From: Actinomycetes bacterium
Lineage (GTDB): Bacteria; Actinomycetota; Thermoleophilia; BMS3ABIN01
Direction of reading: 5' to 3'
DNA length: 64,000 bases
NCBI GenBank assembly: GCA_021785935.1
Contig: JAJYOG010000001.1
Location: forward strand, 128,743-192,742
Shown: positions 4,591 through 64,000 of the stretch, one piece after another
Layout: every line of letters starts with the position of its first letter
Position numbering within the stretch: the first letter of the stretch is position 1
Program-made: the position numbers and the translations under genes
The notes under the pieces: generated by a model
The model's database searches: none
Told to the model about the DNA's origin: nothing
Seen by the model: only the letters and a program-made list of their open reading frames with translations

Positions 4591-5441
4591 AAGAAATTCT
4601 CCAGTTCGCTGATGACGTCACCTTGTGAGAACGGCTGCTTGACCAACGGCTCCTGATTGGCGATCTCGGGCAGGCGCTCTTCAAGGGTCGGGCGGTCCGA
4701 ACGGTAGATAATTCCGGTGGGAATGCGGTCGCCGAACTCAAGCGCCAAACGCCAGGCGGCCTCGCGGTCACTGGGATCGTGTGATACACCAACCGGATTG
4801 CATCTTTGCTTGTACCACTGAAAGGTGTTGATCTTGTTATAGGTCACGCAAGGCTGGAGGATATCGAGGAGCGAAAAACCGCGGTGTTCAAGAGCAGCCC
4901 GCATCAGCTCCTTGAGCTGTTCCTGGTTTCCGGAGAAACCCCGGGCCACGAAACCCGCATCCATGGAAACAGCCAGGGCAACCGGGTTCAAGGGTTCATA
5001 AAGAACCCCGAACGGCTGGGTTCCGGTGACCATGCCCTCATCGGTTGTCGGCGAGGCCTGGCCCTTGGTCAGTCCGTATACCTGGTTGTCATGAACAAAA
5101 ACGGTGATGTTGAGATTGCGCCGCAAGGCATGCAGAAAGTGGTTGCCGCCCTCACCGTAACAATCGCCGTCACCGGCAACCGCGAGAACCCGCATTCCAT
5201 GATTGACAAGACGGATTGCCTGTGACACTGGTAGCGTCCGGCCGTGCAGGCCGTTAAATGTATTACATTTCGTGTAGTGAGGAAACTTGCCGGCCTGACC
5301 TATTCCCGAAACAATGATGAGCTCATGCGGCTCGATGCCCATTTCCACCATGGCCATCTTGAAGCTTCGCAGGATCTGCAGGTTGCCGCATCCCGGGCAC
5401 CAGGCCGGGTTTTGGCCGCGGAAATCTTCCAGCTCAGACAT
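4587..5441 (-). CDS. korB: 2-oxoacid:ferredoxin oxidoreductase, beta (TPP-binding) subunit
   Basis: AWCPGCGN and the TPP motif VAGDGDCYGEGGNH. ATG 5441 is preceded by GGGGAG and overlaps the korA stop by 8 nt. Confidence 0.85.
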   Translation of the reverse strand: MSELEDFRGQNPAWCPGCGNLQILRSFKMAMVEMGIEPHELIIVSGIGQAGKFPHYTKCNTFNGLHGRTLPVSQAIRLVNHGMRVLAVAGDGDCYGEGGNHFLHALRRNLNITVFVHDNQVYGLTKGQASPTTDEGMVTGTQPFGVLYEPLNPVALAVSMDAGFVARGFSGNQEQLKELMRAALEHRGFSLLDILQPCVTYNKINTFQWYKQRCNPVGVSHDPSDREAAWRLALEFGDRIPTGIIYRSDRPTLEERLPEIANQEPLVKQPFSQGDVISELENFF

Positions 5442-7200
5442 CGTTTCTCCCCGCGTCACCAAGATAATCGAGCAGTTCTTCCAGCATGAAGGGACGGCCG
5501 TCGAATTTGTTCAGATGCCGGTCGAAAACAAAACCGGTTTCCGCACGCACCAGTTGCGCGAATTGCGAGGTGGCGTTGTTCTCCACGCAGACCGTGCTTT
5601 TTGCTTTGCCGAGCACTTCCAGGAAGTCAGACTTTTCCGGGTCCGGGAAGGGAAATATCTCGCTGAAGTGTAGCATGGCAATACTGCTGGAATCGCCCAT
5701 GATATCAACGGCTTCCTTGATGACGCCATAAGTCGAGCCCCATCCGACAACGACAACTTCAGGATTTTCAGCGCCGTAATAAAGTGGCGGCGAGATTTCC
5801 TCCCGGATGAGCGGCATCTTTTTTAGCAACCGCTTTTCGACCATGAGCCTCCGGGTAAGCGCATCTTCGATCAGGTGGCCCTCTTCGTCATGCTCGTCAC
5901 TATCCGTGACGACCAGGTGTCGCGAGGCGCCCGGCTCGGCAAGAGGTGAGACTCCGGAATCCGTGTAGGCGTGCCGCTTGTAACTATCAAGCTTGGCAAG
6001 ATCGCCGGCGCGAAGGCGATAGTCATGATAGGGGATCTTCTCCGCGTCGAGGCCGTCGAGAGACCACTCGCTGTCCGCCAGATACTGGTCGGAGATGATA
6101 AAGGCAGGCACCTGGTATTTTTCAGCCAGGTCAAAAGCCTTGCCTGTGAGATGGAAAGCCTGCCCGGGGCTTCCCGGAGCCATAATAATTTTGGGGAACT
6201 CCCCATGGGCAGCGTGTAATACATAAAGGAGATCGGCCTGTTCTGTGCGCGTCGGCAGGCCTGTTGCCGGCGCCGGCCTCTGCCCTACGTAGATTACGAC
6301 CGGGGTCTCGGTCATGCCCGCAAGCGATACTCCTTCGACCATCAGCGCGAAACCGCCACCCGCGGTTCCGGTCATCGATCTGACTCCCGCGTAAGAAGCG
6401 CCAATCGCCATATTGATCGCAGCGATCTCATCCTCTGCCTGTTCGACAACCAGACTATGTTTCTTGCTTTGCGCGGCCATGAAGTTAAGTATCCCGGTGG
6501 AGGGAGTCATCGGGTAGGCCGTGTAGAACCGGCAACCACTCAGAAGTGCTCCCAGGCCGACAGCGTTGGTGCCATCCAGGAGCATGCGCCCTGGGGCGCC
6601 GCCGCCCGCAGGCGTCGCCCCCGCCTCTGCCGATCTGGGCTCGGGCACCGAAAAGGCGCATTGGCTACAATTTTCACGGGCGAATTGCGCGCCGGCGCTC
6701 GCGGCGGCGATATTCTGCTCCACCACCTCATGACCCTTGCGGGCAAAGACCTCATTGAGCAGCGCTTCCAGAATTTCCAGGCTCATGCCCAGCATGCCGA
6801 GCACGGCGCCCACGGCCACGGTGTTTTCCATCAGCCGGTTGCCAGCGGTATCCATGGCGATCTGACGGGAGGGAACATCGAGAAAGTTTTCGCCTTCATA
6901 CTTTTGTCTGATCGTCTCGGAATCGTAAACGATCATGCCGCCGGCGTTAAGCTCGTCGCGGTGCTCCTCAACGGTTGTTTTATCAAGGGACACCAATATG
7001 TCAACCAGGCTCCGGGAAGAGCTGACCGGCCGGTCCGATAATCGCACCTGATAATAGTTGTGTCCACCGCGGATACGCGACATGTAATCCTGGTGAGTAA
7101 AAACGTGGAAGCCGGCGCGGGTGAAAAGCTTGGCCAGCACGGCGCCGATAGTCTGCAGCCCCTGGCCTGCCTGCCCACCTATCCTGATCGTGTAATCCAT
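5434..7200 (-). CDS. korA: 2-oxoacid:ferredoxin oxidoreductase, fused gamma-alpha subunit
   Basis: The N-terminal IRIGGQAGQGLQTIG gamma-type domain is followed by the alpha domain (YPMTPST, GASYAGVRSMTGTAGGGFALM). 588 aa, upstream of the beta subunit. Confidence 0.85.
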   Translation of the reverse strand: MDYTIRIGGQAGQGLQTIGAVLAKLFTRAGFHVFTHQDYMSRIRGGHNYYQVRLSDRPVSSSRSLVDILVSLDKTTVEEHRDELNAGGMIVYDSETIRQKYEGENFLDVPSRQIAMDTAGNRLMENTVAVGAVLGMLGMSLEILEALLNEVFARKGHEVVEQNIAAASAGAQFARENCSQCAFSVPEPRSAEAGATPAGGGAPGRMLLDGTNAVGLGALLSGCRFYTAYPMTPSTGILNFMAAQSKKHSLVVEQAEDEIAAINMAIGASYAGVRSMTGTAGGGFALMVEGVSLAGMTETPVVIYVGQRPAPATGLPTRTEQADLLYVLHAAHGEFPKIIMAPGSPGQAFHLTGKAFDLAEKYQVPAFIISDQYLADSEWSLDGLDAEKIPYHDYRLRAGDLAKLDSYKRHAYTDSGVSPLAEPGASRHLVVTDSDEHDEEGHLIEDALTRRLMVEKRLLKKMPLIREEISPPLYYGAENPEVVVVGWGSTYGVIKEAVDIMGDSSSIAMLHFSEIFPFPDPEKSDFLEVLGKAKSTVCVENNATSQFAQLVRAETGFVFDRHLNKFDGRPFMLEELLDYLGDAGRNDV

Positions 7201-7315
7201 ATCCTGTTAATTTCCTGTTATTCATATGGTTAAACAAAACCAGCCTGGATGGCCGACGGTTTTGGTGTGTACGGCGTCCGCGACGACAGCGCAACCCCGG
7301 GATTGGCCGCCGGCC

Positions 7316-7565
7316 TTAGTGGGTAGCGCAGGCAACACAAGGATCGTACGCCCGCACCATGCGTGTCGAGATTGCCGGTGAGGCGCGCCAGGCGTAGTGC
7401 CTCAGGCAAGGCTTTATGAAGCTGTTGCCGGATATCGGCCATTGAGGCAACCAGGGGAGCCCGGCTAAAGCCTCCAATGCAGGTCGTGATCGGATGCACG
7501 GCCCGGCCGCCGATGGCGTAAACAATGTCGTTTCCAAGTTTCTTGAGCGCCAGAGCCGATGACAC
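7316..7565 (-). pseudogene. [NiFe]-hydrogenase large-subunit remnant (truncated, internally deleted, frameshifted)
   Basis: One frame reads LGNDIVYAIGGRAVHPITTCIGGFSRAP. Another frame ends RMVRAYDPCVACATH*, the C-terminal DPCxxCxxH nickel-site motif. Only about 80 codons remain of an expected 400 or more. Confidence 0.7.
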
Positions 7566-7747
7566 TTCCTGGGGATGATCCCTTGATCGAGGTGACGTTA
7601 TGAACCGATGGGCAGACGCCGCAGATTCGCGAAGTGATCGAGGGAGCATCGAAGAATTTGCGGCCGCGTCTTCACGGTCGCTTTCCGGCCATGGCTGACT
7701 TCTTGCCGCCGGAGCAATATTCAAAACCGAAAGCGGCGAAACCGTGA

Positions 7748-8302
7748 TCAGGAAAAAAGTTCGCTGTAACACACGAGCGGCTCGAAAGGCAGGCTGCCCT
7801 CCCGCTCGATGTTTTCGGCGCCGCCCTCTTCGCGGTCGACGAGAGTGTAAGCGACAACCGGTTCGAGACCTTCCACTTTGGCGCTATTGACGGCGGTTAT
7901 GATGGAGCCGCCACTGGTAACCACATCGTCGACAATGGCAACCCTGGAGCCACGTTCGATCGAGCCTTCGATCCATTTACTGGTACCGTGCTTCTTGGGC
8001 TCCTTGCGAACGATGAAACCTCGCACTGGATAACCCAGCTTCCAGCTGGAAGCTACCACTCCGGCGACGATGGGGTCGGCGCCGATAGCCAGGCCGCCGA
8101 TGGCGTCAATTGAAGCCGCACGAAGCTTTTCCACAAGAAGCTCGGAAGCAACCGCCAGCCCTTCGGGATCCAGAGTAACTCGCTTGCAGTCGAAATAATG
8201 GTCGCTGCGCTTGCCGGAAGTGAGGACGAAATCCCCCTTCATATAGGCTTTCTCCAGAAGGAGCTGGCGCAGCCTTTTTAAAAGTTGGTCGGTCTCGGTC
8301 AT
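7748..8302 (-). CDS. pyrE: orotate phosphoribosyltransferase
   Basis: FVLTSGKRSDHYFDCK and the PRPP-binding loop RVAIVDDVVTSGGS. Start placed at MTETDQ (ATG 8302). Confidence 0.9.
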   Translation of the reverse strand: MTETDQLLKRLRQLLLEKAYMKGDFVLTSGKRSDHYFDCKRVTLDPEGLAVASELLVEKLRAASIDAIGGLAIGADPIVAGVVASSWKLGYPVRGFIVRKEPKKHGTSKWIEGSIERGSRVAIVDDVVTSGGSIITAVNSAKVEGLEPVVAYTLVDREEGGAENIEREGSLPFEPLVCYSELFS

Positions 8303-8315
8303 GGAGCAGATATTA

Positions 8316-8650
8316 TCACACCATTCCTTGCCAGCGGTCGAACAGTTCCTGATATTCAGGTACAAGGGAACAGAATTTTTGAAACTTGCGTATCAAGTCG
8401 GGATAAGTCCTCCCCCGCGACATTAGTTCGCTGGCCGAGCTGACGTTGGGCTCATCTGTCGGTCCTCGGCAACCGTCACAAGGCACCCCAGCAGAGGGGC
8501 AGACAACACCACAACCCCGCCCGGGTAATGGCGCCCAGACAGGGAAGGCCCTGTAGTGGCAGGCAGGGATTTTCCAATACTTTGCACTCCACATGTTGCG
8601 ACGCCGGCACTCCCCCAAATGAGGAACAACTTCCCAGCGATGCCAATATC
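8316..8650 (-). pseudogene. [NiFe]-hydrogenase small (delta) subunit remnant, N-terminally deleted and frameshifted
   Basis: ILASLGSCSSFGGVPA (GxCxxxGG small-subunit motif) in one frame at 8602-8649. GCGVVCPSAGVPCDGCRGPTDE (distal cluster cysteines) in another frame at 8316-8516. Confidence 0.6.
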
Positions 8651-8657
8651 CTGGAAC

Positions 8658-9319
8658 GCCAAATCCGCAGCGCATCTGGCGTTCCAGGGATACAAAGACC
8701 CTCGAGTCTTCGAACCCGAGTTCCTTTAGGCGGACAAGCGCAAAACGGAACATTACCGGCGGACCACACATCAGCACCGATGTGCCTTCCGGCTTGAGGC
8801 TGATTTCATCAAAAAGAGAGGTGATGAGACCGGTGTTCCCGCTCCAGCCCGGCGGCGCCTCATCGACAATGGTTTCGACCCCGCCCTGCCAGCTCCAGGT
8901 TTCATATTCATCAGTGAATAAAAGCAGCTCCGGATTTCTGGCTCCGTGGAGTATAGTCAGCTCGCCGAATTCATCGTTGAGGCAGACGGCGCAATCTATC
9001 GCACTTTTCAGGGGAGCCAGCCCGATGCCCCCGGCGACAAAGACAGGTTCTGCCCAGCCATGTCGGTCAGGGGGAAGCCCTGGCCGTATGGCCCGCGCAC
9101 CCAGACGGAAGCTCCCGGCAGCAAACGCTGCATGGCGCTGGTGAGGTTGCCGGCATCGCGCACGCAAAGCTCAAAACTGCCTTTTTGCGTTGGCGTCGAG
9201 CAGATTGATATGGGCGCCTCCCCGATACCGAGTAACGACACCTGCATGAATTGGCCGCTGCAAAAAGAAAATTCATCCCGAATTTGCGGTTTTTTAACCG
9301 GCTGTATTTCGTTATTCAA
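8658..9319 (-). pseudogene. hydrogenase gamma subunit (FAD/NAD-binding reductase) remnant with a 1-nt frameshift, C-terminus lost
   Basis: SGQFMQVSLLGIGEAPISICS...VWVRGPYGQGFPL in one frame continues as VFVAGGIGLAPLKSAI...LMCGPPVMF...ERQMRCGFG in another. The shift is near 9043-9047 (ctgtc where ctggtc is expected). The 2Fe-2S tail is missing. Confidence 0.65.
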
Positions 9320-9355
9320 GGCTGGCTGCCTCCCGGCCTTTTTTTTGTCGGAGAG

Positions 9356-9810
9356 CTACAGCACCTCGTCAATTACATGGCGCGGGTTGATATCGACGGG
9401 GCAGAAATGGAAACAGGCGCCGCAGCCCGTACAGCCGGGCTGTCCAAAGGTATCCTGTGTGCGCATGAATTTGTGTGAAAATCGATTCCCGAATGTGAGC
9501 TTGCGTCCTGCCTTGCTGCCCGCGAACAGGCGAGGGGTTTCTTCATCCAGATCGAGAAAGAGGTCAAAATTCCCGCGATCACAGTGTAGTCGGCAGTCAG
9601 CTCCAGCAGCCAACTCTTTAGATCCGGGTTCTCCTCCCAGTCCGAAGCAGGAGCTTCACCGGCATCGCTTTTTTCACTGCTGTTGGCGGCCATCATCACT
9701 CCGTTATTGGATAAAAACGTTTGCGGCAAATGCCGCTGAACGCATATTCCCACAATCGCCGGCAGGAAAACGGCGGATCTTGGGAAATACTTGAATGACA
9801 GGAAGGCCAC
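9356..9810 (-). pseudogene. hydrogenase beta (Fe-S) subunit remnant, 5' part deleted
   Basis: C-terminal CTGCGACFHFCPVDI ferredoxin-type CxxCxxCxxxCP motif. Only 85-145 codons are left, split over two frames. It sits first in a beta-gamma-delta-alpha order. Confidence 0.5.
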
Positions 9811-9819
9811 AATACGGAG

Positions 9820-55133: not shown

Positions 55134-56654
55134 ATGGCTGAGAACCGTGCAATTAATAATTTGCGCCAAAAAGTCCGGTCTTACAGCGGTTACCGCTGGC
55201 TGGTGCTGGTAACCGTCGCGGCCGGCATGATCATGGCGATTCTAAGCTCGTCCATAGTCAACATCGCGCTCCCCACCATTACCGCCGAATTTGGATCCAG
55301 CATCAATACCATGACCTGGGTGGTCACCATCTTCATGATCACCCAGGCGACGTTGATGCCGGTTTGGGGGCGGGCAGGTGACATCTATGGCCACAGGAAA
55401 ATCTTCATCGCTGGCCTAGTGGTCTTCTCGGCGACCTCGATTATCTGTACGGTTGCCTGGGATCCTTACAGCCTGATCGCAGGCCGTGCCCTACAGGCTG
55501 TCGGCGCCAGCGCCCTTTCGCCCATGGCTCTGGCTTTCATCTATCAGGCATTCCCGTCACGCGATCGGGCGCAGGCGTTGGGAGTGATGGGTGGTGTCAT
55601 CGGCAGCGCTCCGGTGCTGGGGCTTGCGGGCGGCGGCCTCCTGGTGGACGCTTTTGGCTGGCGCAGCATCTTCTTTATCTACATACCGCTTTGCGCCCTC
55701 TTTGTTCCGGTAGCTCTTCTTATTCTCGAGGAATCAGGGGGGCAGGATTCGCGCGGCTTCGATGTGCTTGGCGGGGTTTTATTATCCACGGGACTGTTCA
55801 GCGGACTGCTGGGCCTCAACCAGGGAAGCGTCTGGGGCTGGACTGACTGGCGCATCCTGGCCTGCTTTGCCGTATCGATGGCTTTGCTCGCCGCATTTGT
55901 CCTGCACGAAAGGCGGACGGCGCTGTCCCTGCTCGACCTGACTCTGCTCAAGATCAGGTCGCTGGCATCCTCCAACATTGCCGCCTTCTTTTCCTCGGGC
56001 GCCATGTTTGGATCATTGCTCTTGCTGCCATACTTTTTTCAATCAATCTTGGGCATAACGCCGTCGGCTACCGGTTTCGCAATAGCGCCACTGGCGCTCA
56101 TGTTTCTACTGACGGCGCCAATCGGCGGCAGGCTGACAGCGCGAATCGGCGCCCGGCTGACCGCCTCGATAGGCTTAATGGTATCCGCCACCGGCTTCCT
56201 GCTTCTGGCGCTGCAGATTTCTCCCGAAGCAACGAATCTGAAACTGGCGGGTCCGATTTTAATCATGGGGATCGGGCTCGGCCTGACAATGGCGCCGCTG
56301 ACGACAGCGGCGGTACACGACGTGCCGCCCGACAAGCGCGGCATCGCCTCCTCACTGCCCAACATGAGCCGCTTCATCGGCGGTTCGTTCGCCATCGCGG
56401 TATTTAGCACCGTTCTGACATCACGCCTGGCCGGTCATCTCATCAATCCTGGAGTAAGCGCGGATGCGGCTGCCGGCATGACTTCCAGCGACGGTGAGGC
56501 GGCAGTAATCGGAAATCCCATTACAAGAGAGGCGCTGTCAGCCTCTTTCAGGGATGTATTCCTCTTCGCCATCACTTTCCTGGCGATTTCTTTTGTCGTT
56601 GTGCAGTTCATCCCGCGGCTTAAATACGCCATTACTTCTGGTTCAGATCGATGA
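55134..56654 (+). CDS. MFS transporter, 14-TM DHA2 (EmrB/QacA-like) type
   Basis: SIVNIALPTI, GRAGDIYGHRK (motif A), and about 14 hydrophobic helices. Confidence 0.85.
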   Translation: MAENRAINNLRQKVRSYSGYRWLVLVTVAAGMIMAILSSSIVNIALPTITAEFGSSINTMTWVVTIFMITQATLMPVWGRAGDIYGHRKIFIAGLVVFSATSIICTVAWDPYSLIAGRALQAVGASALSPMALAFIYQAFPSRDRAQALGVMGGVIGSAPVLGLAGGGLLVDAFGWRSIFFIYIPLCALFVPVALLILEESGGQDSRGFDVLGGVLLSTGLFSGLLGLNQGSVWGWTDWRILACFAVSMALLAAFVLHERRTALSLLDLTLLKIRSLASSNIAAFFSSGAMFGSLLLLPYFFQSILGITPSATGFAIAPLALMFLLTAPIGGRLTARIGARLTASIGLMVSATGFLLLALQISPEATNLKLAGPILIMGIGLGLTMAPLTTAAVHDVPPDKRGIASSLPNMSRFIGGSFAIAVFSTVLTSRLAGHLINPGVSADAAAGMTSSDGEAAVIGNPITREALSASFRDVFLFAITFLAISFVVVQFIPRLKYAITSGSDR

Positions 56655-58044
56655 AAACCTGACCGTTGGGGTTTATGCCTACGACGTATCCTGCTCCCCA
56701 ATCACGGTACATGGCGTGATTCTCGGGACTGTATTGACCGGGCAAGACCGACCAACCCTTGCGATGGCATAAATAAAACAAAGTAGGATCGTTGCTGTCG
56801 ACGACGACAATCAGATCGTCCGGATTCGTATGCGCCTGCACATAATTCCCCAAGGCTACCCGCTCGGAAGCCGATGGGGCCTCCTGGATGAAATAAATCA
56901 CATAAATAAACAGGCTGGACACCAGCATCCCAGCCATGCACACCAGCAACAGAATCTGCTTGAGATCAAACCACTTCCTGTAACCCGATAGCAGTTTGCC
57001 GTAAACCTTGCCCATCAGCAGGGCGGCCGGAACCATGACGGGCAAGAGATAATATTCGTGTACGTAATTGCCCTCGCCGACGATCAGCACAAAAACGAGA
57101 ATGGCCACCATCCAGAAGATGAGAAAACGCTCCTCCTTCCGCTCTCTTTTGAGGACTAAACCCGTGATGAGGATGGGTATGCCAAAAAACGCCAGCGGCC
57201 GCGCCAGATGCTCCCACAGGATTACTCGCCAATAATCGAACGTCAGCAACAGGTCCAGAGACCCCCATTTATCGCCGGATTGCCAGATGCCAAAGGTAAG
57301 CCCGGTTTCCAGATAGAGCTGGTGCGCATGCCAGTACCAGAGGGCAAAGGGCACAGCGATGATCAGAAAGAACATCCAAAGATAAGGCTGTACGGCCAGA
57401 CGAAATCGATAACGGCGCCAGGCCAGATAACCGAGAGGCAGAAAGAGGTAAAGGCTTGGGGGTTTGATCAGAACCGCCAGGCTGATGAAAATCGATGCGG
57501 TCAGGATGTGGCGGAAGCTGTCTGTCTTGTACCAGCGGTAGAAGTAATAGGTACCAACGGTAAGACACATCATCAACATGGACTCAGGCATGATGGTGCG
57601 GCTGTAGAAGATCTGCAACGGCAAAAAGGCAAAGAAAGCCGCTGCCCACAGGGCGCATTTCTCATCCCATAGATCCTTGGCAAACCGGTAGATAAAATAG
57701 ACGGCAATGAGGGAAAAGGCTATCGCCAGTAGACGGGCAAGGAACTCGTGCACGCCGAAAATCTTGTAAAGCGCGGCGACAGCGTAGGAATAGATGGGAA
57801 ATTCTGTCTCGGTATAACCCGACGTCGTCCCGCCCCAATCGACCTGGGGGAAAAGGATGTTGAACCGGCCCTCGGAGAAGTTGCGGGCGATGGAAGCGGT
57901 ATCGGCCTGCCTCCAGCTATGGACGCCCATAGGCGGCGCGGTTAAGCCGACCAGCCGGGCCAGGAACGCACCCGTCAGGATGTAGTAGATCAGCTTCGAA
58001 TCGGCGCCAACCCTTCCCTGTCTCTTGCCGTCGTTGTTCAGCAT
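56632..58044 (-). CDS. GT39/ArnT-like (GT-C) polyprenyl-phosphate-dependent glycosyltransferase
   Basis: GVHSWRQADTASIARNF first loop, more than 10 TM helices, C-terminal soluble domain. Its ATG overlaps the upstream TGA (TGATG). Confidence 0.75.
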   Translation of the reverse strand: MLNNDGKRQGRVGADSKLIYYILTGAFLARLVGLTAPPMGVHSWRQADTASIARNFSEGRFNILFPQVDWGGTTSGYTETEFPIYSYAVAALYKIFGVHEFLARLLAIAFSLIAVYFIYRFAKDLWDEKCALWAAAFFAFLPLQIFYSRTIMPESMLMMCLTVGTYYFYRWYKTDSFRHILTASIFISLAVLIKPPSLYLFLPLGYLAWRRYRFRLAVQPYLWMFFLIIAVPFALWYWHAHQLYLETGLTFGIWQSGDKWGSLDLLLTFDYWRVILWEHLARPLAFFGIPILITGLVLKRERKEERFLIFWMVAILVFVLIVGEGNYVHEYYLLPVMVPAALLMGKVYGKLLSGYRKWFDLKQILLLVCMAGMLVSSLFIYVIYFIQEAPSASERVALGNYVQAHTNPDDLIVVVDSNDPTLFYLCHRKGWSVLPGQYSPENHAMYRDWGAGYVVGINPNGQVFIDLNQK

Positions 58045-59375
58045 CAGGAGAAGAAGCTGGTAACCACGAGCATCAGGCTCAGTACGATCAGCGCCGTGGT
58101 AGTCAGGCCGGCGATAATGTTATGCCGGCGGCTGTTGGCATATATACCCATGATGCCTCGATCGTTCACGATCACCATGACGAAGATGAGAATTAGCGGC
58201 AGCAGGATGCCGTTCACGTCCTGTGCCAACACCATGATGTTCAGCAGCGGAAGATTGGGGATGAGAGCAACCAGCGCACCGATCACTATCGATGCCGTAA
58301 ACAGCCCGTGAAATATGGGCGCCTCCTTGAAGGAGCGGTTTACGCCCGATTCAAAGCCAAACGCCTCGCAGATTGCGTAGGCGGTCGCCAGCGGCAAGAT
58401 ACCGGCGGCAAGCACCGATGCGTTGAGGAGCCCGAAGGCAAAAAGTTTCGAGGCAAACTGTCCCGCCAGAGGCACCAGTGCTTGGGCCGCCTGTTCGGCG
58501 CTGTCGATGCTGCCGCCCGTCGCGTAGATGGTCGCGGCGCAGGCTACGATGATGAAGAACGCCACTACGTCGGTGACGATCGCGCCAAGGATAACTTCAG
58601 CCTTGGTATAGCGGTAATGCTTGATCGATATGCCCTTGTCGACAACGTAAGCCTGGATAAAAAATTGCCCCCACGGGGTGATTGTCGTGCCGATGACGGC
58701 GATGAAAAGCAGAATGTAACTCGCGTTCATCTGAAACGAAGGCACGACGGTGCTGTGAAACGCCTGGCTCCAGTCCGGGTGCGCCATTATCCCCGAGACC
58801 ACATAGGCCAGATAGAAACTGGAGAAGACGAGGAAGACACGTTCGGCGATTTTGTAGGAGCCCCGCACTACCAGCAGCCAGATAAACACCGCCACGAAAG
58901 GCACGGTATAGTACTTGGAAGCTCCAAAGAGCTGGAAGCTTGAGGCGATTCCCGAAAACTCCGAGATAGTCGTACCCAGGTTTGCCACCAGCATCGCCGC
59001 CATGGCTACGACCGTCAGCTTCAGCCGGAAACGTTCGCGGATGAGCGCCGCCAGGCCCTGACCCGTGACTACTCCCATCCGTGCTCCCATTTCCTGGGTG
59101 ACCGCGAGGCTGAAGGTGATGAGCAGGAGCATCCACAACATGCCGTAACCGAAGCGCGCGCCGGCCATGGAATAGGTGGCGATGCCACCGGCGTCATTAT
59201 CGGCGTTGGCGGTTATGAGCCCCGGCCCCATCATTGCCAGGAAGAGCAGCAGGCGGGTCCGCCCGATCCGTGGGAGCGGTGGCAGCTTCGGCCGGCTGAC
59301 GTGCGGCAGGCGCGGCTTGCCTGCGGCGGGCAGGCGCATCCAGCCGATAACGGGCATTGCTTTTAGGCGGCGCAT
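58044..59375 (-). CDS. NRAMP-related transporter with non-canonical metal site (NRMT-like, probable Mg2+ transporter)
   Basis: NRAMP fold. TM1 reads ANADNDAGGIATYS (canonical DPGN becomes DAGG). TM6 reads IGTTITPWGQFF (canonical AxxMPH becomes TTITPW). Starts 15 nt after the MgtE-sensor gene. Confidence 0.8.
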   Translation of the reverse strand: MRRLKAMPVIGWMRLPAAGKPRLPHVSRPKLPPLPRIGRTRLLLFLAMMGPGLITANADNDAGGIATYSMAGARFGYGMLWMLLLITFSLAVTQEMGARMGVVTGQGLAALIRERFRLKLTVVAMAAMLVANLGTTISEFSGIASSFQLFGASKYYTVPFVAVFIWLLVVRGSYKIAERVFLVFSSFYLAYVVSGIMAHPDWSQAFHSTVVPSFQMNASYILLFIAVIGTTITPWGQFFIQAYVVDKGISIKHYRYTKAEVILGAIVTDVVAFFIIVACAATIYATGGSIDSAEQAAQALVPLAGQFASKLFAFGLLNASVLAAGILPLATAYAICEAFGFESGVNRSFKEAPIFHGLFTASIVIGALVALIPNLPLLNIMVLAQDVNGILLPLILIFVMVIVNDRGIMGIYANSRRHNIIAGLTTTALIVLSLMLVVTSFFS

Positions 59376-59390
59376 GGTTCCCTCTCCCGG

Positions 59391-60635
59391 CTAGCCGAAG
59401 ATCTTCGGCAGCCTTTTCTTCCAGGTGAGGGGCAGGATGATATCGATCGCGTCATCGACCGTGATGATGCCACGCAGGATGTTATCCTGGTCGGTGACGG
59501 GCACCGCCAGCAGATTGTACTTCGCGACCACCTGGGCTACGTCTTCCAGCGAGGTGTCGGTGCGGATGCTGATCAGATGGTGCTCCATGAACTCCTCAAC
59601 CTTCTGGTCGCGGCGGGCCAGCAGCAGGTCGCGCAAGGAAACGACACCCGCCAGGTGGCCGTCATCGTCAACGACGTAGATGTAATAAATGGTTTCTGCG
59701 TCCGGCTCGAGTTCGCGGAGGCGCCCGATTGCCTGGCCTGCGGTCATCCCCGGAGGCAGAGACACGAATTCGGTGGTCATGATGCCGCCGGCGGAGTCCT
59801 CTTCATATCGAAGCAGCTGTTTGACGTCGCGCGCCTCTTTAAGCCGCATTGAGGACAAAAGCGCCGCCGCTTTTTCCTCGGGCAGGTCGGCCAGCAGATC
59901 GGCGGCGTCGTCAGGATCCATGTTGGAGAGGATTGTTGCCGCCTTGCGCTCGTTCATGTCATTGAGCAGGGCGGCCTGGAAATTTGGATGCATCTCCTCG
60001 ACGGTATCGGCAGCGACCTCGTCCTCGAGCGCCTCGACGACCGCGACACGCTCTTCCGGCGAGAGTTCATTGGCGATGTCGGCGATGTCGGCGGGGTGCA
60101 GGAGTGCCAGCTTGTCGTGAGTCACCTGCAGCTTCATGCCGCTGGAATCGCCGCCGGCAACCGGCTCCACGGTCTTCCAGTCGAGAAGGCGTGGCTCGAC
60201 GCGGCGCGACAGGCGCTCGGCCAGCCGGGATAGGCCCAGCCGCCGCATGATGGCGCCGCCGGAGATATCGACACCGACAACCCGGAGGCTGCCATTGGCC
60301 CGGGCCAGCTGCAGGTCGTTAACCCGAATCAGCTTGTGCCCCTCCGTATCTACAATCTGCTTGTCGAGGATGTCCCCTGCTAAAAAAATCTCGCCCTCTT
60401 CCGGCTCGATCCCCTCGAGCTCCGCCTTTGGCAGGCGCAACATCGTCTGGGATTCCTCGAAGCTGCGAACCAGGTGCCAGGGAAGCAGCATCTTCTTGCG
60501 GCCACTTTTGACGACAAGCTTGGTCGCGGAGGGATATTTACGCTTGATGGTAACGGCAATATCGTCGAGGACGCCCACGGTCTGCGACCGCGAATCCTTG
60601 ACCTGTTGCCCCAGGAGTTTACTGAGGAAAAACAT
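59391..60635 (-). CDS. MgtE-type cytosolic Mg2+-sensing module only (2x PRC-barrel + MgtE_N + CBS pair); no membrane domain
   Basis: LLGQQVKDSRSQTVGVLDDI and ILDKQIVDTEGHKLIRVNDL (PRC-like). HPADIADIANELSPEE...AADLLADLPEEKAAALL (MgtE_N). Then a CBS pair. The protein ends GIITVDDAIDIILPLTWKKRLPKIFG* without TM helices. ATG 60635 follows AGGTGA; a GTG at 60644 is also possible. Confidence 0.85.
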   Translation of the reverse strand: MFFLSKLLGQQVKDSRSQTVGVLDDIAVTIKRKYPSATKLVVKSGRKKMLLPWHLVRSFEESQTMLRLPKAELEGIEPEEGEIFLAGDILDKQIVDTEGHKLIRVNDLQLARANGSLRVVGVDISGGAIMRRLGLSRLAERLSRRVEPRLLDWKTVEPVAGGDSSGMKLQVTHDKLALLHPADIADIANELSPEERVAVVEALEDEVAADTVEEMHPNFQAALLNDMNERKAATILSNMDPDDAADLLADLPEEKAAALLSSMRLKEARDVKQLLRYEEDSAGGIMTTEFVSLPPGMTAGQAIGRLRELEPDAETIYYIYVVDDDGHLAGVVSLRDLLLARRDQKVEEFMEHHLISIRTDTSLEDVAQVVAKYNLLAVPVTDQDNILRGIITVDDAIDIILPLTWKKRLPKIFG

Positions 60636-60663
60636 GCTGCTCACCTGCCCTTCTGCACCAAAT

Positions 60664-60710
60664 AAAAAACCTCCCGTAACCAGGAGGAAAAAACTCCCGT
60701 AGGGGAGGCT
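60664..60710 (-). terminator. two tandem U-tract hairpins (riboswitch expression platform)
   Basis: Minus-strand RNA: CUCCC-cuac-GGGAG-UUUUUU (60688-60708), then CCUCCU-gguuac-GGGAGG-UUUUUUAUUU (60664-60687). Confidence 0.5.
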
Positions 60711-60774
60711 TGCTTATTTGGCGCCTTGCTCGCGCAAACAGGCAGGCGCGCGAACGCGCCCGCAAAGGCCTTCC

Positions 60775-60968
60775 CCAACTCGTACAAGCTTTGGCACAGC
60801 GCATCGTAGAGTGCGTGAGCGCACGGGATTTATCATCCGCGCCACCTTTGCTCTCAGCCGTTTCGGGCAAAACCTTAGTCCGGTAATGCCTGTTCTACCC
60901 GTTGGGGTCTTTGGACCTTTCCGGGCAACGGCCTGTGTCCGCGCTGGAGCCTCACCTAACGAGGATAC
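60775..60968 (-). promoter_or_regulatory. M-box (ykoK-leader) Mg2+ riboswitch aptamer
   Basis: Minus-strand RNA contains CUCGUUAGGUGAGGCUCC, UGCCCGGAAAGGUCCAAAGAC, GGGUAGAACAG, ACUAAGGU and GCCAAAGCUUGUACGAG. The order and spacing match the B. subtilis mgtE M-box as I remember it. Confidence 0.85.
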
Positions 60969-60983
60969 GGCTTTGCTTTACCT

Positions 60984-61012
60984 AAACTAATCCCGGAATT
61001 GGTGATTGTCAA
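60984..61012 (-). promoter_or_regulatory. candidate promoter for the M-box transcript
   Basis: Minus strand: TTGACA (61012-61007), 17 bp, TAGTTT (60989-60984), about 15-20 nt before the aptamer. Confidence 0.3.
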
Positions 61013-61070: not shown

Positions 61071-62876
61071 ATGACGTCGATAAAAAATGGACTCAAGAAC
61101 TGGCTTTTGCCGTTGTCGGCATACCTGGGGATGACCCTCGCCGTTACCTGGCCGCTCGCACTTCACTTTAATGATTATGTCATTGGCGGCGGCAACGACG
61201 GCCCTGATTCTGTCTGGAATATCTGGTGGATAAAATTTGCCCTCACCGGTCAGGGGCAAAGCCTTTTCGACTGTTATTTCCGGTTCTTTCCCGACGGCGT
61301 CAACCTGACCTTTCACTGGATGCCCAAAATGCTGGGCATTTTGGGCATCCCTTTACAACAATTTCTTTCGCTGGGCACGGCGTACAATCTTCTCGTTGTT
61401 CTCACGCTCGTAGCATCCGGCCTGACCGCCTACCGCCTGCTTTTACATCTGCTTCCCCGTGCCCTGCCGGCCTTTTTAGCCGGCGCCTTTTTTGCTTTTT
61501 CTCCGTACCGCCTTGGCCAGATATCCTACCTGAACCTGCTTGCCACGATGTTAATACCGGTTTACATCCTGCTGATCATCAGGGCGAAAGAGGCTTTGGC
61601 CCAAAAGGTGGGTTACCCATGGATGTATTTTGGCCTCGCCGGCGTGGTGCTGGCTTTAACCTCATATGACACTGAACACTACGCTATTTTTCTGGTAATT
61701 TTTTCAATTATATTTCTCTTCTTTTACAGGCCTTCCCGTAAGGACCAGGTTGAACACCGGCAATGGCTCAAGTTAATTACCGGCCTTGCGGCGACCATGG
61801 CTATAGCCGTCATCTTGTTTTCGCCGATGCTGGTGGCCGCCGCCCGCGAGTTGAGCGCAAGCGGCGACATCGTCACATCCAATACGCGTGAGATTGAAAG
61901 CCTCTCTTCCGATGCACTTTCATTTTTCATTCCCGAACACGATTCCGACCTCCTGGTTTCACGATTGGGATTGATTACCAACCGTATCCGGGAGCCGGAA
62001 AATTCATATATCGGACTGGTGATTCTCGCCCTTGCCTTTACCGGTTTATGGCGCTACCGCAAAGTGAAGGAGGCCCGGCTGTGGGTTTATACCGCCCTGG
62101 TCTTCGCAATACTGGCGCTTGGACCTACCCTGAGGATTTATGGCGGTTTCACACATATTCCCATGCCATATATGCTTATCAATCGCCTGCCGCTCATAAA
62201 CACGATCAGGACGCCTTCACGTTATGTGGCGATGGTTTCCCTGGCCGTCGCGATCCTGGCCGGTTACGGGTCCAATGCAATCTTCGACCGGCTAAAAAAA
62301 TATCGCTACGCCGCGCTGTCGATACCCCTGGTTGCGGTATTGCTGATCGCTTCCGTCTATTTTGAAACTACAACCAGAACCAACCTGATATCTACGGAGG
62401 TACCCTCTGTCTATCAGGAGGTAGCCGGTAGCAAGATACAGGGCTCCGTCATCAGCATGCCTTTTGGATGGCAGACGGCAACTACCGGCAACATTGGCAG
62501 AGACGCGACTTTTGTCGAACTCTACCAGCCGGTTCATGAAAGGCCCATGGCCGGAGGTATGGTGTCGCGGGCTCCCGCGGAGCTGGTTTATGGCATCGCC
62601 AACTCTCCGGTCCTCGACTATCTTGCCAACCCCGGCGCCGGGCCCTCGGCCGCCGATCTGGACCCGAAAAACATCGATGAGAGCATGCAGAGATTCCAGA
62701 TCGCGTTTATCATCGTGCACAAGCTTTATCCGTGGTTTGTATTCGGAGGGGAATCTTTTCGGAATACAGCCTTCAACGCGGAAGAGCTAAAGAATATTGA
62801 CCAATACATAACCAAAAATCTGCCCATGGAAAAATTTGAAGAGACGGATGAGATTGTCGCGTATCGACGGGTATAA
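61071..62876 (+). CDS. large polytopic membrane protein with C-terminal soluble domain (GT-C-like?), unknown family
   Basis: 601 aa. N-terminal TWPLALHFNDYVIGGGNDGPDSVWNIWWIKFAL, about 12 TM helices, and a roughly 200-aa C-terminal non-hydrophobic domain. Confidence 0.65.
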   Translation: MTSIKNGLKNWLLPLSAYLGMTLAVTWPLALHFNDYVIGGGNDGPDSVWNIWWIKFALTGQGQSLFDCYFRFFPDGVNLTFHWMPKMLGILGIPLQQFLSLGTAYNLLVVLTLVASGLTAYRLLLHLLPRALPAFLAGAFFAFSPYRLGQISYLNLLATMLIPVYILLIIRAKEALAQKVGYPWMYFGLAGVVLALTSYDTEHYAIFLVIFSIIFLFFYRPSRKDQVEHRQWLKLITGLAATMAIAVILFSPMLVAAARELSASGDIVTSNTREIESLSSDALSFFIPEHDSDLLVSRLGLITNRIREPENSYIGLVILALAFTGLWRYRKVKEARLWVYTALVFAILALGPTLRIYGGFTHIPMPYMLINRLPLINTIRTPSRYVAMVSLAVAILAGYGSNAIFDRLKKYRYAALSIPLVAVLLIASVYFETTTRTNLISTEVPSVYQEVAGSKIQGSVISMPFGWQTATTGNIGRDATFVELYQPVHERPMAGGMVSRAPAELVYGIANSPVLDYLANPGAGPSAADLDPKNIDESMQRFQIAFIIVHKLYPWFVFGGESFRNTAFNAEELKNIDQYITKNLPMEKFEETDEIVAYRRV

Positions 62877-62879
62877 AAC

Positions 62880-64000
62880 CTGAAGTTTACCCGCTGGCTG
62901 CTGCCGGCGCCAGCCTATCTGGCCATGACGGCGGCCTTCACCTGGCCGGCCGCGCTGCACCTGGGAAATTACTATATTGGGAACGGCGGAGACGGCGCCA
63001 TTTCGGTCTGGAACATCTGGTGGATGAAGTTCGCGCTGACCACTCCGGGGCAGGGGTTCTTCGATTGTCACTCCCTGTTTTCCCGGATGGCGTCAATCTT
63101 ACCTTCCAGTCGATCCCCAAATTTCTGGGAGCGATTTTTATCCTCCTGAGTGGGATTTTTTCCCTGGCTGTCTCGTACAACCTGATTGTCATCCTGACTT
63201 TTGTGACTTCCGGCATGGCTGCTTACTGGCTGGTTTATCATTTACTAAAACGGGCTGTTCCGGCCTTCTTTGCCGGAGCCTTCTTCGCCTTCTCCCCGTA
63301 CCACCTGGACCAGCAATCGCATATCAACTTGCTGCCGACCATGCTGGTCCCGGTTTTCATCCTGCTGATTATCAAAGGGAAAGAAGCAATGGATGACCGC
63401 ACTGGGAAAGGGCTGCCGCTCCGGCAGCGGCTGAACTTCATCCTGGCCGGGGTGGTCCTGGGACTGATCGCTTACGACACCGAACATTACGCCATTTTTC
63501 TGATCGTCTTCTGTCTTCTTTATTTGCTTTTCTACCTGCCATATCGATGCGCGCGCGGCCAGTGGAAGCACTGGCTTAGGCTGATGGGAAATATTTATCT
63601 GTCCCTGGTGATCGCGGCAATCATATTTTTCCCGATGCTGTTGGCGGCGGTCCGATATTTGAGAGAGGCGGGCAACATTATCACCAACAACTTCCTTTCA
63701 TTTGAAAGGTCCTACCTCGGTCTGGTAATACTGCTGCTGGCGGCAGCTGGCGCCTGGAGCTATTGGCGTGTGCTCCAGACCCGGCTCTGGGTGCTGGCCG
63801 CGCTGGTCTTTTCGATCCTGTCACTCGGTCCGGTGCTCTATGTGAACGGCGCCAGTACCGCTTGCCCATGCCTTATGCGATCATCAATCAAATACCACTG
63901 CTCAATTCGATCAGAACACCGTCGCGGTATGTCGCCATCGCCTCACTGGCGTTGGCGGTGCTGGCGGGATACGGTATCGACGCGATCTTCATGAAACTGA
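62880..64000 (+). pseudogene. tandem paralog of the preceding gene, disrupted by two 1-nt deletions and an internal deletion (runs off the window)
   Basis: Homology (LKFTRWLLPAPAYLAMTAAFTWPAALHLGNYYIGNGGDGAISVWNIWWMKFAL) starts one codon after the upstream TAA, in the same frame. The frame changes at the T4C3 run 63078-63084 and again near 63857. About 33 codons are missing relative to copy 1. Confidence 0.6.

Follow-up and report, generated by a model that had tools for sequence, protein, structure and literature searches.

The locus considered here raises the question of how three genes behind a Mg2+ riboswitch, coding for an MgtE-like protein devoid of a pore, a transporter of another family and a glycosyltransferase, belong together, and whether such an arrangement is new. 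The locus is an Mg2+-uptake operon composed of an M-box, an MgtE-like cytoplasmic protein (the sensor) and an NrmT/NRMT transporter, and is of a kind already described, found here in Thermoleophilia (Actinomycetota); the GT-C glycosyltransferase (GT) gene is a lineage-specific addition to it. Operons of an mgtE fragment and nrmT under M-boxes were reported in 2014 (Shin et al., PLoS Genet, PMC4072509), where it was also noted that most NrmT genes follow one encoding the cytoplasmic domain of MgtE, often under an M-box. Trans feedback regulation of NrmT by the MgtE fragment was proposed in the same paper, and two-layer control of Mg2+ by RNA and protein is a pre-existing hypothesis. Therefore, while the first-pass annotation of this DNA correctly recognized the M-box, the NRMT clade, the membrane-less MgtE cytoplasmic module and the GT-C transferase, its statement that the combination was undescribed does not hold.

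With the operons of Shin et al. (2014), such as C. acetobutylicum Ca_c0685 and A. capsulatum Acp2976/Acp2977, the present locus shares the gene order, the M-box, the MgtE cytoplasmic homologue, a transporter of the NRMT clade and the proposed trans feedback role. It differs from them in coming from a Thermoleophilia MAG and in having a translationally coupled GT-C gene downstream. The joint explanation that we favour, and consider fairly probable, is a described operon in which the sensor would restrain NRMT in trans, and to which a GT-C passenger gene of the lineage has been added.

Promoter, M-box and expression platform

A putative operon promoter can be read at 60984..61012 (minus strand), with the -35 element TTGACA (61012-61007), a 17-nt spacer and the -10 element TAGTTT (60989-60984); it was missed by the consensus scan, since the -10 element fits at only 3 of 6 positions. 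The M-box (ykoK-type) Mg2+ riboswitch aptamer lies at 60767..60970 (minus strand). It was matched by cmscan to the full length of Rfam RF00380 (model positions 1-169 of 169) with E 3e-30 and 135.1 bits, where the gathering score is 44, and is the sole Rfam match within the window, i.e. the whole stretch of 64,000 nt that was analysed. The U-tract hairpins reported earlier after the aptamer were also found by the terminator scan, as two hairpins resembling terminators, each with its U tract (60707-60694 and 60687-60670), that make up the expression platform (60670..60710, minus strand).

Folding of the isolated platform RNA predicted a long terminator stem (z-score -3.4). Alternatively, the 5' arm of the terminator, GCCUCCCC, pairs with the 3' P1 strand of the aptamer, GGGGAAGGC (60776-60767), in an anti-terminator duplex computed at -16.6 kcal/mol. 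At low cytosolic Mg2+ the aptamer would be open, its 3' P1 strand would pair with the terminator 5' arm, and transcription would read through; at high Mg2+ the riboswitch would halt new synthesis, following the faster post-translational shut-off discussed below. The aptamer family and the transcription-termination logic are shared with the B. subtilis ykoK/mgtE M-box, from which the present leader differs in controlling a non-MgtE pore, in a 38-nt insertion in the peripheral loop, and in its two consecutive terminator-like hairpins.

In a survey of 80 species-representative genome loci with a sensor homologue, 23 had a homologous aptamer ahead of the sensor gene, as did all close relatives. 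In 28 of 36 M-box loci, a hairpin with a U tract separates the aptamer from the start of the sensor gene.

The soluble MgtE-like sensor and its linkage to NRMT

The first gene encodes a soluble MgtE-like sensor (59391..60635, minus strand; 414 aa from ATG), analysed with Pfam and NCBIfam. The ORF opens at GTG 60644 (417-aa ORF), but the true start is probably ATG 60635, because the homologues begin MFFLSK. Of the two PRC barrels proposed in the first reading, the first (60462..60635, minus strand; aa 4-61 of the 417-aa ORF) is supported by PF05239 (33.2 bits) and by a pLDDT of about 90 in the AF2 prediction. The second is supported only in part: the PRC-like region at aa ~85-170 gave a sub-threshold PRC match (17.5 bits, E 0.004) and a weak match to the first barrel in a profile comparison (E 0.038), and AF2 puts beta strands there with lower confidence. 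The MgtE_N domain (59796..60101, minus strand; aa 182-283; Pfam, 103 bits) and the CBS pair (59436..59789, minus strand; aa 286-403; two Pfam CBS domains) are followed by a basic tail, LPLTWKKRLPKIFG (59394..59435, minus strand). The tail is disordered in the AF2 prediction; it is found in most of the 80 loci, and its W, K, K and R are invariant in alignments A1 and A2. As the first-pass annotation had it, the protein has no MgtE membrane domain detectable by Pfam and no TM-like segment (highest 19-residue Kyte-Doolittle mean 1.37); its NCBIfam mgtE score of 206 also falls short of the cut-off, 232.75.

Full-length PRC-MgtE_N-CBS-MgtE channels (~600 aa; e.g. P0155, from Candidatus Solincola tengchongensis) are 40-44% identical to the sensor across its whole length, PRC region included; unlike the sensor, they also carry the membrane domain PF01769. 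On sequence grounds, the sensor amounts to a PRC-MgtE-type channel with all of its cytoplasmic part but no pore. This detail is new. Shin et al. (PMC4072509) do not mention the N-terminal PRC-barrel part and do not name the CBS domains.

The N domain and the CBS pair are common to the sensor and to Thermus thermophilus MgtE (TtMgtE; 2YVY/2YVX/2ZY9), whose cytosolic domain (2yvy) is matched with E 1.2e-43 by sequence and TM-score 0.79 by fold. In the alignment to 2yvy, the TtMgtE ligands E59, D91 and D95 correspond to D213, D245 and D249 of the sensor MgtE_N domain, and D247 and D250 to D398 and D401 of its CBS pair, all of them acidic, while N377 takes the place of D226. A further new detail is that the sensor keeps the ligands that were mutated to probe the TtMgtE sites Mg4, Mg6 and Mg7 (PMC5882242), these positions being acidic in 79-80 of the 80 sensors. 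In contrast, the position of D226 (Mg5) is Asn in most sensors of the 80 loci, and the plug helix, with its sites Mg2 and Mg3, is absent, as is the TM pore. Also new is the finding that the conserved basic tail stands where the acidic plug helix was; this tail and the extra N-terminal PRC barrel(s) of ~170 aa have no counterpart in TtMgtE. As judged from these residues, Mg2+ sensing by the sensor, if kept, differs from that of MgtE.

The adjacency of the sensor and NRMT genes, put forward in the first reading, is widely kept: the sensor gene is directly followed by NRMT, in the same orientation, in 64 of the 80 loci, which span Actinomycetota, Dormibacterota, Chloroflexota, Acidobacteriota, Firmicutes, Synergistia and Methanobacteria. 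The spacing is tight, with 15 nt here and overlap or near-overlap in many loci. Apparent natural fusions of the two proteins turned out to be frameshift read-throughs, and therefore Rosetta-stone support is absent.

The sensor would most likely restrain NRMT in trans. As Mg2+ rises, the acidic ligands D213, D245, D249, D398 and D401 would bind it and the module would close; the closed module would then most likely restrain NRMT from the cytoplasmic side, providing a fast post-translational shut-off. Contact with NRMT might be made through the PRC barrels or through the conserved basic tail found in place of the plug helix. Against such restraint, a B. subtilis strain deficient in Mg2+ transport is rescued by NrmT alone, with no need for the fragment, and co-expression of the A. 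capsulatum pair gave no better rescue (Shin et al., PMC4072509), in an assay that is blind to an inhibitor.

It is conceivable, though rather unlikely, that the sensor is instead a cytoplasmic chaperone or buffer of Mg2+ (or Mn2+), or a signal to other targets, and that its linkage to NRMT reflects shared regulation only. A metal-chaperone activity was offered as an alternative by Shin et al. (PMC4072509), who saw no effect of co-expression. Moreover, 16 of the 80 sensor-like genes stand without an adjoining transporter, beside unrelated genes, and therefore other partners or roles are possible; the basic tail motif LPPERRRRLP is also present in some of these orphans. However, the tight adjacency is maintained in both bacteria and archaea, whether or not an M-box is present, and the nearest full-length relatives use the module as a channel gate, both of which speak against this reading. 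That the CBS pair mainly senses adenine nucleotides, as that of MgtE does ATP, so that Mg2+ import would be tied to energy or Mg-ATP status and not to free Mg2+, is compatible with restraint in trans, but appears unlikely. The fold and sequence match with the MgtE CBS pair, including the ATP-bound 5x9g and 5x9h, and the nucleotide binders among the other CBS proteins matched by fold would agree with it; the most conserved feature of the sensor, however, is its set of acidic Mg2+ ligands.

The glycosyltransferase gene

The third gene (56632..58044, minus strand) encodes a 470-aa GT-C glycosyltransferase of the PMT_2/GT39-ArnT type (Pfam PMT_2, 64.8 bits; PMT, 48.3 bits). The Pfam matches and its ~10 hydrophobic segments are shared with the ArnT/PMT (GT83/GT39) GT-C transferases, and its homologues carry GT39 or ArnT family annotations. 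The overlap of the NRMT stop and the GT ATG, already pointed out in the first reading, is present as TGATG with base 58044 in common, and there is no alternative start codon in the first 25 GT codons. Because this overlap leaves no room for a promoter, co-transcription of the GT with NRMT is implied in this genome, where sensor, NRMT and GT would all derive from one mRNA.

Identical copies of the GT are confined to the same genome, and its closest homologue elsewhere is 61% identical. Most relatives with 84-93% identical sensors have unrelated small genes in the slot instead of the GT. A GT of the same family occupies it in only two further lineages (L096 and L097), and these GTs are 51-52% identical to the present one, compared with 84-90% for the sensors. 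The gap between NRMT and GT is 457 nt in L097, where it contains a terminator-like hairpin and an ORF on the opposite strand, and about 94 nt in the other lineage (from gene calls on a fragmented contig); overlap is seen only here. Glycosylation genes also flank the operon on its other side.

Judged by this distribution, the GT is outside the conserved module, and it most likely occupies, as a passenger, a variable slot beside a glycosylation-rich neighbourhood. That it could be a functional arm of the response to Mg2+ starvation, with envelope glycosylation induced along with uptake in analogy to PhoPQ-ArnT, is quite unlikely, although the co-transcription implied by the overlap and the occupied slot in L096 and L097 would fit. 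The first-pass claim of co-induction by Mg2+ limitation is not sustained, since the linkage occurs in 0 of the 80 loci and in few close relatives; the most similar GT that was found in the nearest species representative (54-56% identical) is encoded on a different contig. The intervening sequence in L097 and the low identity of the GTs relative to the sensors also speak against it, and the glycosylation genes on the other flank suggest local shuffling. Unlike ArnT, the present GT has no link to a PhoPQ-type regulator.

Substrate of the transporter and integrity of the sensor gene

NRMT, a predicted NRAMP-related Mg2+ transporter of 443 aa (58044..59375, minus strand; Pfam Nramp, 312.8 bits), starts at ATG 59375, 15 nt past the sensor stop, preceded by GGGAGAGGG. 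The metal-site motifs DAGG (aa 61) and TTITPW (aa 230), singled out in the first reading, fit the NRMT consensus DxxG-TxxA/T (PMC8806188), and EleNRMT (7qia) is matched with E 2e-118 over 400 aligned residues, the next best Nramp-family chain reaching 3e-24. These matches assign the product of the second gene to the NRMT clade of SLC11 transporters, and its binding-site motif to the Mg2+ type. EleNRMT, from Eggerthella lenta (7QIA/7QIC/7QJI/7QJJ), carries Mg2+ and Mn2+ and is H+-uncoupled (Ramanadane et al. 2022, PMC8806188). Both proteins have D-x-x-G in helix 1, T-x-x-A/T-P-W in helix 6 and Trp in place of the first helix-6b His; they differ in the second helix-6 position, which is Thr here (TTITPW) and Ala in EleNRMT (TTIAPW), and in the longer Arg/Pro-rich N-terminal extension of the present protein. 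As in EleNRMT, Mg2+ would be imported down the membrane potential without H+ coupling.

Import of Mn2+ rather than Mg2+ is very unlikely: the A. capsulatum relative was concluded to transport mainly Mn2+ (Shin et al., PMC4072509) and EleNRMT moves both ions, but the present copy has the NRMT motif and the extended EleNRMT match, and is under an M-box, like the Mg2+-transporting C. acetobutylicum genes.

Finally, the possibility that a full-length mgtE gene, such as those of the ~600-aa PRC-MgtE paralogues, was cut short to leave the first ORF as a relic can be discarded on the basis of length conservation and evidence of purifying selection: the best 120 of 6280 homologues are ~394-446 aa long, apart from two partial entries, and none has PF01769, the sensors are 52-93% identical and share an invariant C-terminal tail, the 15-nt spacer leaves no room for a TM-coding remnant, and the syntenic orthologues are all of ~413 aa and not full-length MgtE.

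The riboswitch leader

Judged from its sequence, the minus-strand operon of the window is a well-preserved member of a known operon type to which a lineage-specific glycosyltransferase gene (GT) has been appended. The first-pass annotation had read it as an M-box riboswitch followed by a membrane-less MgtE sensor, an NRAMP-related Mg2+ transporter and a coupled glycosyltransferase, a combination that it did not know to have been described. What had been observed is confirmed, and the interpretation is partly supported: the identities of the elements stand, while the novelty and the place of the GT as a conserved part of a Mg2+ module do not.

The M-box was recovered by cmscan as a full-model match to RF00380 (60767-60970, minus strand; 135.1 bits vs. 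a gathering threshold of 44, E 3e-30, model positions 1-169 of 169), and it is the sole Rfam family in the entire window. A putative promoter, not called by a generic scan, can be read from the sequence on the same strand (-35 TTGACA at 61012-61007, 17-nt spacer, -10 TAGTTT at 60989-60984). The end of the aptamer and the ATG of the first ORF are separated by 131 nt, where a terminator scan found two hairpins with U tracts (60707-60694 and 60687-60670, minus strand); folded in isolation, this expression platform forms a long terminator stem with a z-score of -3.4. A possible anti-terminator would pair the 3' P1 strand of the aptamer (GGGGAAGGC) with the 5' arm of the terminator (GCCUCCCC) at -16.6 kcal/mol. 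This corresponds to the usual M-box scheme, in which Mg2+ locks P1, no anti-terminator can form and the transcript ends. The element occupies a same-strand 5' leader before a Mg2+ transport gene and is followed by an expression platform; the platform is kept in relatives, a hairpin of the terminator type separating the aptamer from the start codon at 28 of the 36 loci with an M-box. By homology, the leader is a predicted Mg2+-OFF transcriptional riboswitch.

The soluble MgtE module and its transporter

The first ORF (ORF 1, the sensor; 59391-60635/60644, minus strand) encodes, as had been proposed, PRC, MgtE_N and two CBS domains in Pfam, with no match to PF01769, the five-helix membrane domain at the C-terminus of MgtE, and no membrane segment (top Kyte-Doolittle 19-residue mean 1.37). 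Its NCBIfam mgtE (TIGR00400) score of 206 falls under the cut-off of 232.75 because only the cytoplasmic half of the model is matched (positions 22-251 of 450). Two PRC barrels had been claimed; the first (PF05239, aa 4-61) scores 33.2 bits vs. a Pfam threshold of 21.2, while the second PRC-like region stays under threshold (17.5 bits, E 0.004), aligns weakly with the first in hhalign (E 0.038), and is given beta strands of moderate confidence by AlphaFold2 (pLDDT 58-84).

The sensor aligns with the cytosolic domain of Thermus MgtE (TtMgtE; 2YVY) at E 1e-43, and its model superposes on that structure with a TM-score of 0.79 and an rmsd of 2.8 Å. The residues mutated by Maruyama et al. (PMC5882242) to probe the cytosolic Mg2+ sites were mapped onto the sensor and scored over 80 species-representative genome loci with a sensor homologue, and five of the six mapped ligands proved to be kept. 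Sensor D213 (TtMgtE E59, Mg7), D245 (D91, Mg4) and D398 (D247, Mg4) are acidic in all 80 loci, D249 (D95, Mg6) in 79 and D401 (D250, Mg5) in 73; D226 (Mg5) corresponds to sensor N377, which is Asn in 67/80. The plug-helix residues E258 and D259 (Mg2, Mg3) are absent, and in their stead there is a conserved basic C-terminal tail, LPxxWKKRLPRIF, disordered in the AlphaFold prediction. Compared with TtMgtE, the sensor retains the ligands driving closure of the N domain and CBS pair, but lacks those tied to the plug helix. Homology shows it to be a predicted MgtE-type cytoplasmic Mg2+-binding module.

The possibility that ORF 1 is the relic of a truncated MgtE is ruled out by conservation of length and by synteny in relatives. 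A homologue search at E < 1e-10 returned 6280 proteins; the best 120 of these, from which lengths and domains were taken, measure about 394-446 aa, except for two partial entries, and the MgtE membrane domain occurs in none of them. The nearest among these 120 come from MAGs that bear the label Thermoleophilia bacterium. When sensor and transporter were searched as one concatenated sequence, a large set of full-length PRC-MgtE_N-CBS-MgtE proteins of about 600 aa was also returned, and because these are 40-44% identical along the whole sensor, the latter represents the entire cytoplasmic portion of an MgtE subfamily with a PRC extension, in a gene of its own. This full-length subfamily (database proteins P0128-P0240), with its N-terminal PRC extension and PF01769, is abundant and comes from Actinomycetota, Chloroflexota and Coriobacteriia; none of the papers examined was found to describe this PRC extension.

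The second ORF (NRMT; 58044-59375, minus strand) starts 15 nt past the sensor stop, with a Shine-Dalgarno sequence ahead, and matches the Nramp (LeuT-fold) domain PF01566 over its full model (312.8 bits, 1-357 of 357). Both metal-site motifs reported earlier, DAGG (aa 61) and TTITPW (aa 230), are present where classical NRAMPs have DPGN and AxxMPH. DAGG and TTITPW agree with the consensus given for the NRMT binding site, in which helix 1 carries DxxG and helix 6 TxxA/T (Ramanadane et al., PMC8806188). The match to EleNRMT (PDB 7QIA) reaches E 2e-118 over 400 residues vs. 3e-24 and 2e-21 (MntH) for the best other Nramp-family chains, so that the assignment holds, and ORF 2 is shown by homology to be a predicted NRMT-type Mg2+ importer. 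EleNRMT transports Mg2+ and Mn2+ without H+ coupling, the uncoupling having been shown for EleNRMT only (PMC8806188). A family-wide docking motif in the N-terminus of NRMT was considered and rejected: the region is merely basic and variable in length, and its motifs are specific to clades (RIGRTRLL in Actinomycetota, MDxRIFTRVFKNP in Methanobacteria).

Distribution of the pair and possible gating

Scanning one genome per GTDB species yielded the 80 loci, and an NRMT homologue lies directly downstream of the sensor gene, on the same strand, in 64 of them; the adjacency is widely conserved. Among the NRMT segments aligned by tblastn from the 80 loci, DAGG is found in 55/68 and TT[IL][TA]PW in 50/67. 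The taxa include Actinomycetota, Dormibacterota, Chloroflexota, Acidobacteriota, Firmicutes, Synergistia and 12 loci of Methanobacteria. An M-box stands just 5' of the sensor gene in 23/80 loci (nhmmer, with a profile built from Rfam-confirmed hits) and in none of the archaeal ones. The Methanobacteria (L027-L030, L032, L034, L035, L039, L040, L042, L043, L061) have the pair without M-box, and their sensors, 38-45% identical to that of the window, share the tail as WKK[RQK][VLI]P. The sensor-NRMT pair reaches far past the Clostridia and Deltaproteobacteria in which it was first noted, and includes riboswitch-less archaea.

No transporter gene lies beside the remaining 16 sensor homologues, which are more distant (36-49% identity) and come mainly from Chthonomonadales, Acidobacteriaceae and some Chloroflexota. 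Orphan sensor-like PRC-MgtE_N-CBS genes stand beside unrelated genes (L038, L056, L058, L060, L062, L063, L065-L067, L070, L077-L080), and several of their products retain a related basic tail, LPPERRRRLP.

Variants of the arrangement were also observed. A Pelosinus sp. MAG (L073) has two complete tandem M-boxes (5290-5467 and 5608-5779; 163 and 161 bits) 5' of the pair, and in four Thermoleophilia/Actinomycetota MAGs (L007, L013, L015, L075) the sensor is followed by two tandem NRMT paralogues (in L007, at 7307-8530 and 8598-9815). In Dormibacterota (L019, L025, L033, L076), the M-box ends about 8-59 nt from the sensor start and no terminator hairpin was found in between, suggesting a translational rather than transcriptional expression platform.

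The arrangement as such is not new. M-boxes were found 5' of Nramp-related genes by Shin et al. (2014; PMC4072509), who showed that Clostridium acetobutylicum NrmT restores Mg2+ uptake, and whose Figure S5 legend speaks of 'mgtE-nramp operons'; the window locus, with a separate gene for the MgtE cytoplasmic domain directly 5' of nrmT, fits their description. The same authors speculated that the MgtE fragment might act in cytoplasmic feedback regulation of NrmT or as a metal chaperone. Because arrangement and feedback idea were both published in 2014, the core of the first-pass annotation restates an existing hypothesis, and its claim to an undescribed combination falls. The PRC extension, the ligand pattern and the tail are addressed neither in PMC4072509 (where the terms 'PRC' and 'CBS' are absent) nor in the EleNRMT paper, and the post-2014 literature searched yielded nothing further on this MgtE-like partner of NRMT.

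In the proposed mechanism, at low Mg2+ the operon would be read through and NRMT would import Mg2+ along the membrane potential; as Mg2+ rises, the acidic N- and CBS-domain ligands would be neutralised, the sensor would close, and in its closed form it would restrain NRMT. An uncoupled importer would need such a brake for the same reason as the MgtE channel does. That the sensor is a direct physical gate of NRMT is a serious possibility, to which we nevertheless give somewhat less than half of the weight. What remains is divided among a function of the sensor as chaperone or buffer, nucleotide sensing, and other partners. In the published experiments, the MgtE fragment was dispensable for NrmT transport, and rescue was no better when both A. 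capsulatum proteins were co-expressed (PMC4072509). Physical interaction might have found Rosetta-stone support in seven long proteins (P0121-P0127) that the concatenated search returned and that resemble natural sensor-NRMT fusions, but these were treated as frameshift read-throughs, and such support is lost: in most of them, out-of-frame stretches rich in Arg and Pro separate or interrupt the two halves, and all are singletons from ENA metagenome assemblies. Annotated with both MgtE_N/CBS and Nramp domains, they are a trap for domain-fusion analyses.

Direct gating can be extended, with similar weight, to a joint reading of the locus, in which a detachable PRC-MgtE_N-CBS gate would dock, through its basic WKKRLP tail and/or its PRC barrels, on an uncoupled LeuT-fold transporter not related to the MgtE pore and would shut it as cytosolic Mg2+ rises; in this lineage, the Mg2+-controlled mRNA would also drive the GT, as an envelope glycosyltransferase. 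If true, a regulatory domain of a channel family would have passed to another transporter fold in the form of a separate subunit, an arrangement conserved in lineages as far apart as Actinomycetota and methanogenic archaea, and trans-gating would explain how an H+-uncoupled Mg2+ importer avoids overloading the cell. The role of the accessory sensor has been a question since 2014, and the comparative data supply concrete residues and constructs for it; testability is raised by the breadth of the pair, by the ligand pattern and by the PRC extension common to the full-length MgtE subfamily.

The glycosyltransferase and its slot

The third ORF (56632-58044, minus strand) encodes a GT39/GT83-like GT-C transferase with PMT_2 and PMT matches above the Pfam threshold (64.8 and 48.3 bits) and about 10 hydrophobic segments; an Asp in WRQADTAS (aa ~45-50) is a candidate for the catalytic acidic motif of the first extracytoplasmic loop. 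The reported overlap with NRMT was verified: the ATG of the GT and the TGA of NRMT have one base in common (TGATG), and there is no alternative start in the first 25 GT codons. In the window genome, the GT is probably co-transcribed with NRMT.

For a general circuit joining Mg2+ to envelope glycosylation, the link to the GT is too patchy. No GT homologue was detected by tblastn in the 80 loci, and most close relatives are without it. Contig DAHXNA010000031.1 of GCA_027371445.1, which matches the window, encodes a GT protein that is identical and has its genes laid out alike, and the translationally coupled GT is limited to the window's own genome copies. In L001, L081-L089, L093 and L094, all with 84-93% sensor identity, unrelated small ORFs come after NRMT, and beyond them lies the convergent MFS-ABC block that the window also has. 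The closest GT homologues are 61-48% identical. Two other lineages have a GT in the same slot: in L096, on a fragmented contig, it starts about 94 nt past NRMT, and in L097 457 nt past it, the interval holding an ORF on the other strand and also a terminator-like hairpin. These same-slot GTs are 51-52% identical vs. 84-90% for the adjoining sensors. Two other homologues lie elsewhere in the genome, one of them in the MAG of the nearest species representative. On the other side of the operon, relatives carry glycosylation-type genes, whose products are a PMT_2 protein of 495 aa, a B_lectin protein and the membrane protein of 601/604 aa; an origin of the GT as a paralogue of the 495-aa gene was discarded, there being no tblastn match at E 1e-3. 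In our reading, the GT occupies a variable slot by a glycosylation-rich neighbourhood and does not belong to the conserved Mg2+ module.

Comparison of close relatives shows this slot, bounded by NRMT and the convergent MFS gene, to be a hot spot of gene turnover. It spans 56632-58044 in the window (the GT), 4905-6434 in L001 (an opposite-strand gene for a membrane protein of 239 aa), 9598-10064 in L081 (which, like L084 and L094, has ORFs of 52-68 aa) and 9509-11787 in L087 (a 229-aa ORF and a DUF7847-like gene). In the window, the 3' ends of the GT and of the MFS gene (55134-56654, plus strand) overlap by 23 nt (56632-56654), with no terminator between them.

Divergently from the M-box promoter, a gene at 61071-62876 (plus strand) encodes a protein of 601 aa, which has about 10 hydrophobic segments and matches no family of Pfam or NCBIfam even with the E cut-off relaxed to 10. 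It is directly followed at 62895-64000 (plus strand) by a paralogue, probably frameshifted or decaying, whose similarity is split over three reading frames and which in L090 and L091 is called as genes of 309 and 198 aa. Since its 604-aa orthologue in relatives adjoins the 495-aa PMT_2 and B_lectin genes, the 601-aa protein may be an unclassified envelope-glycosylation protein.
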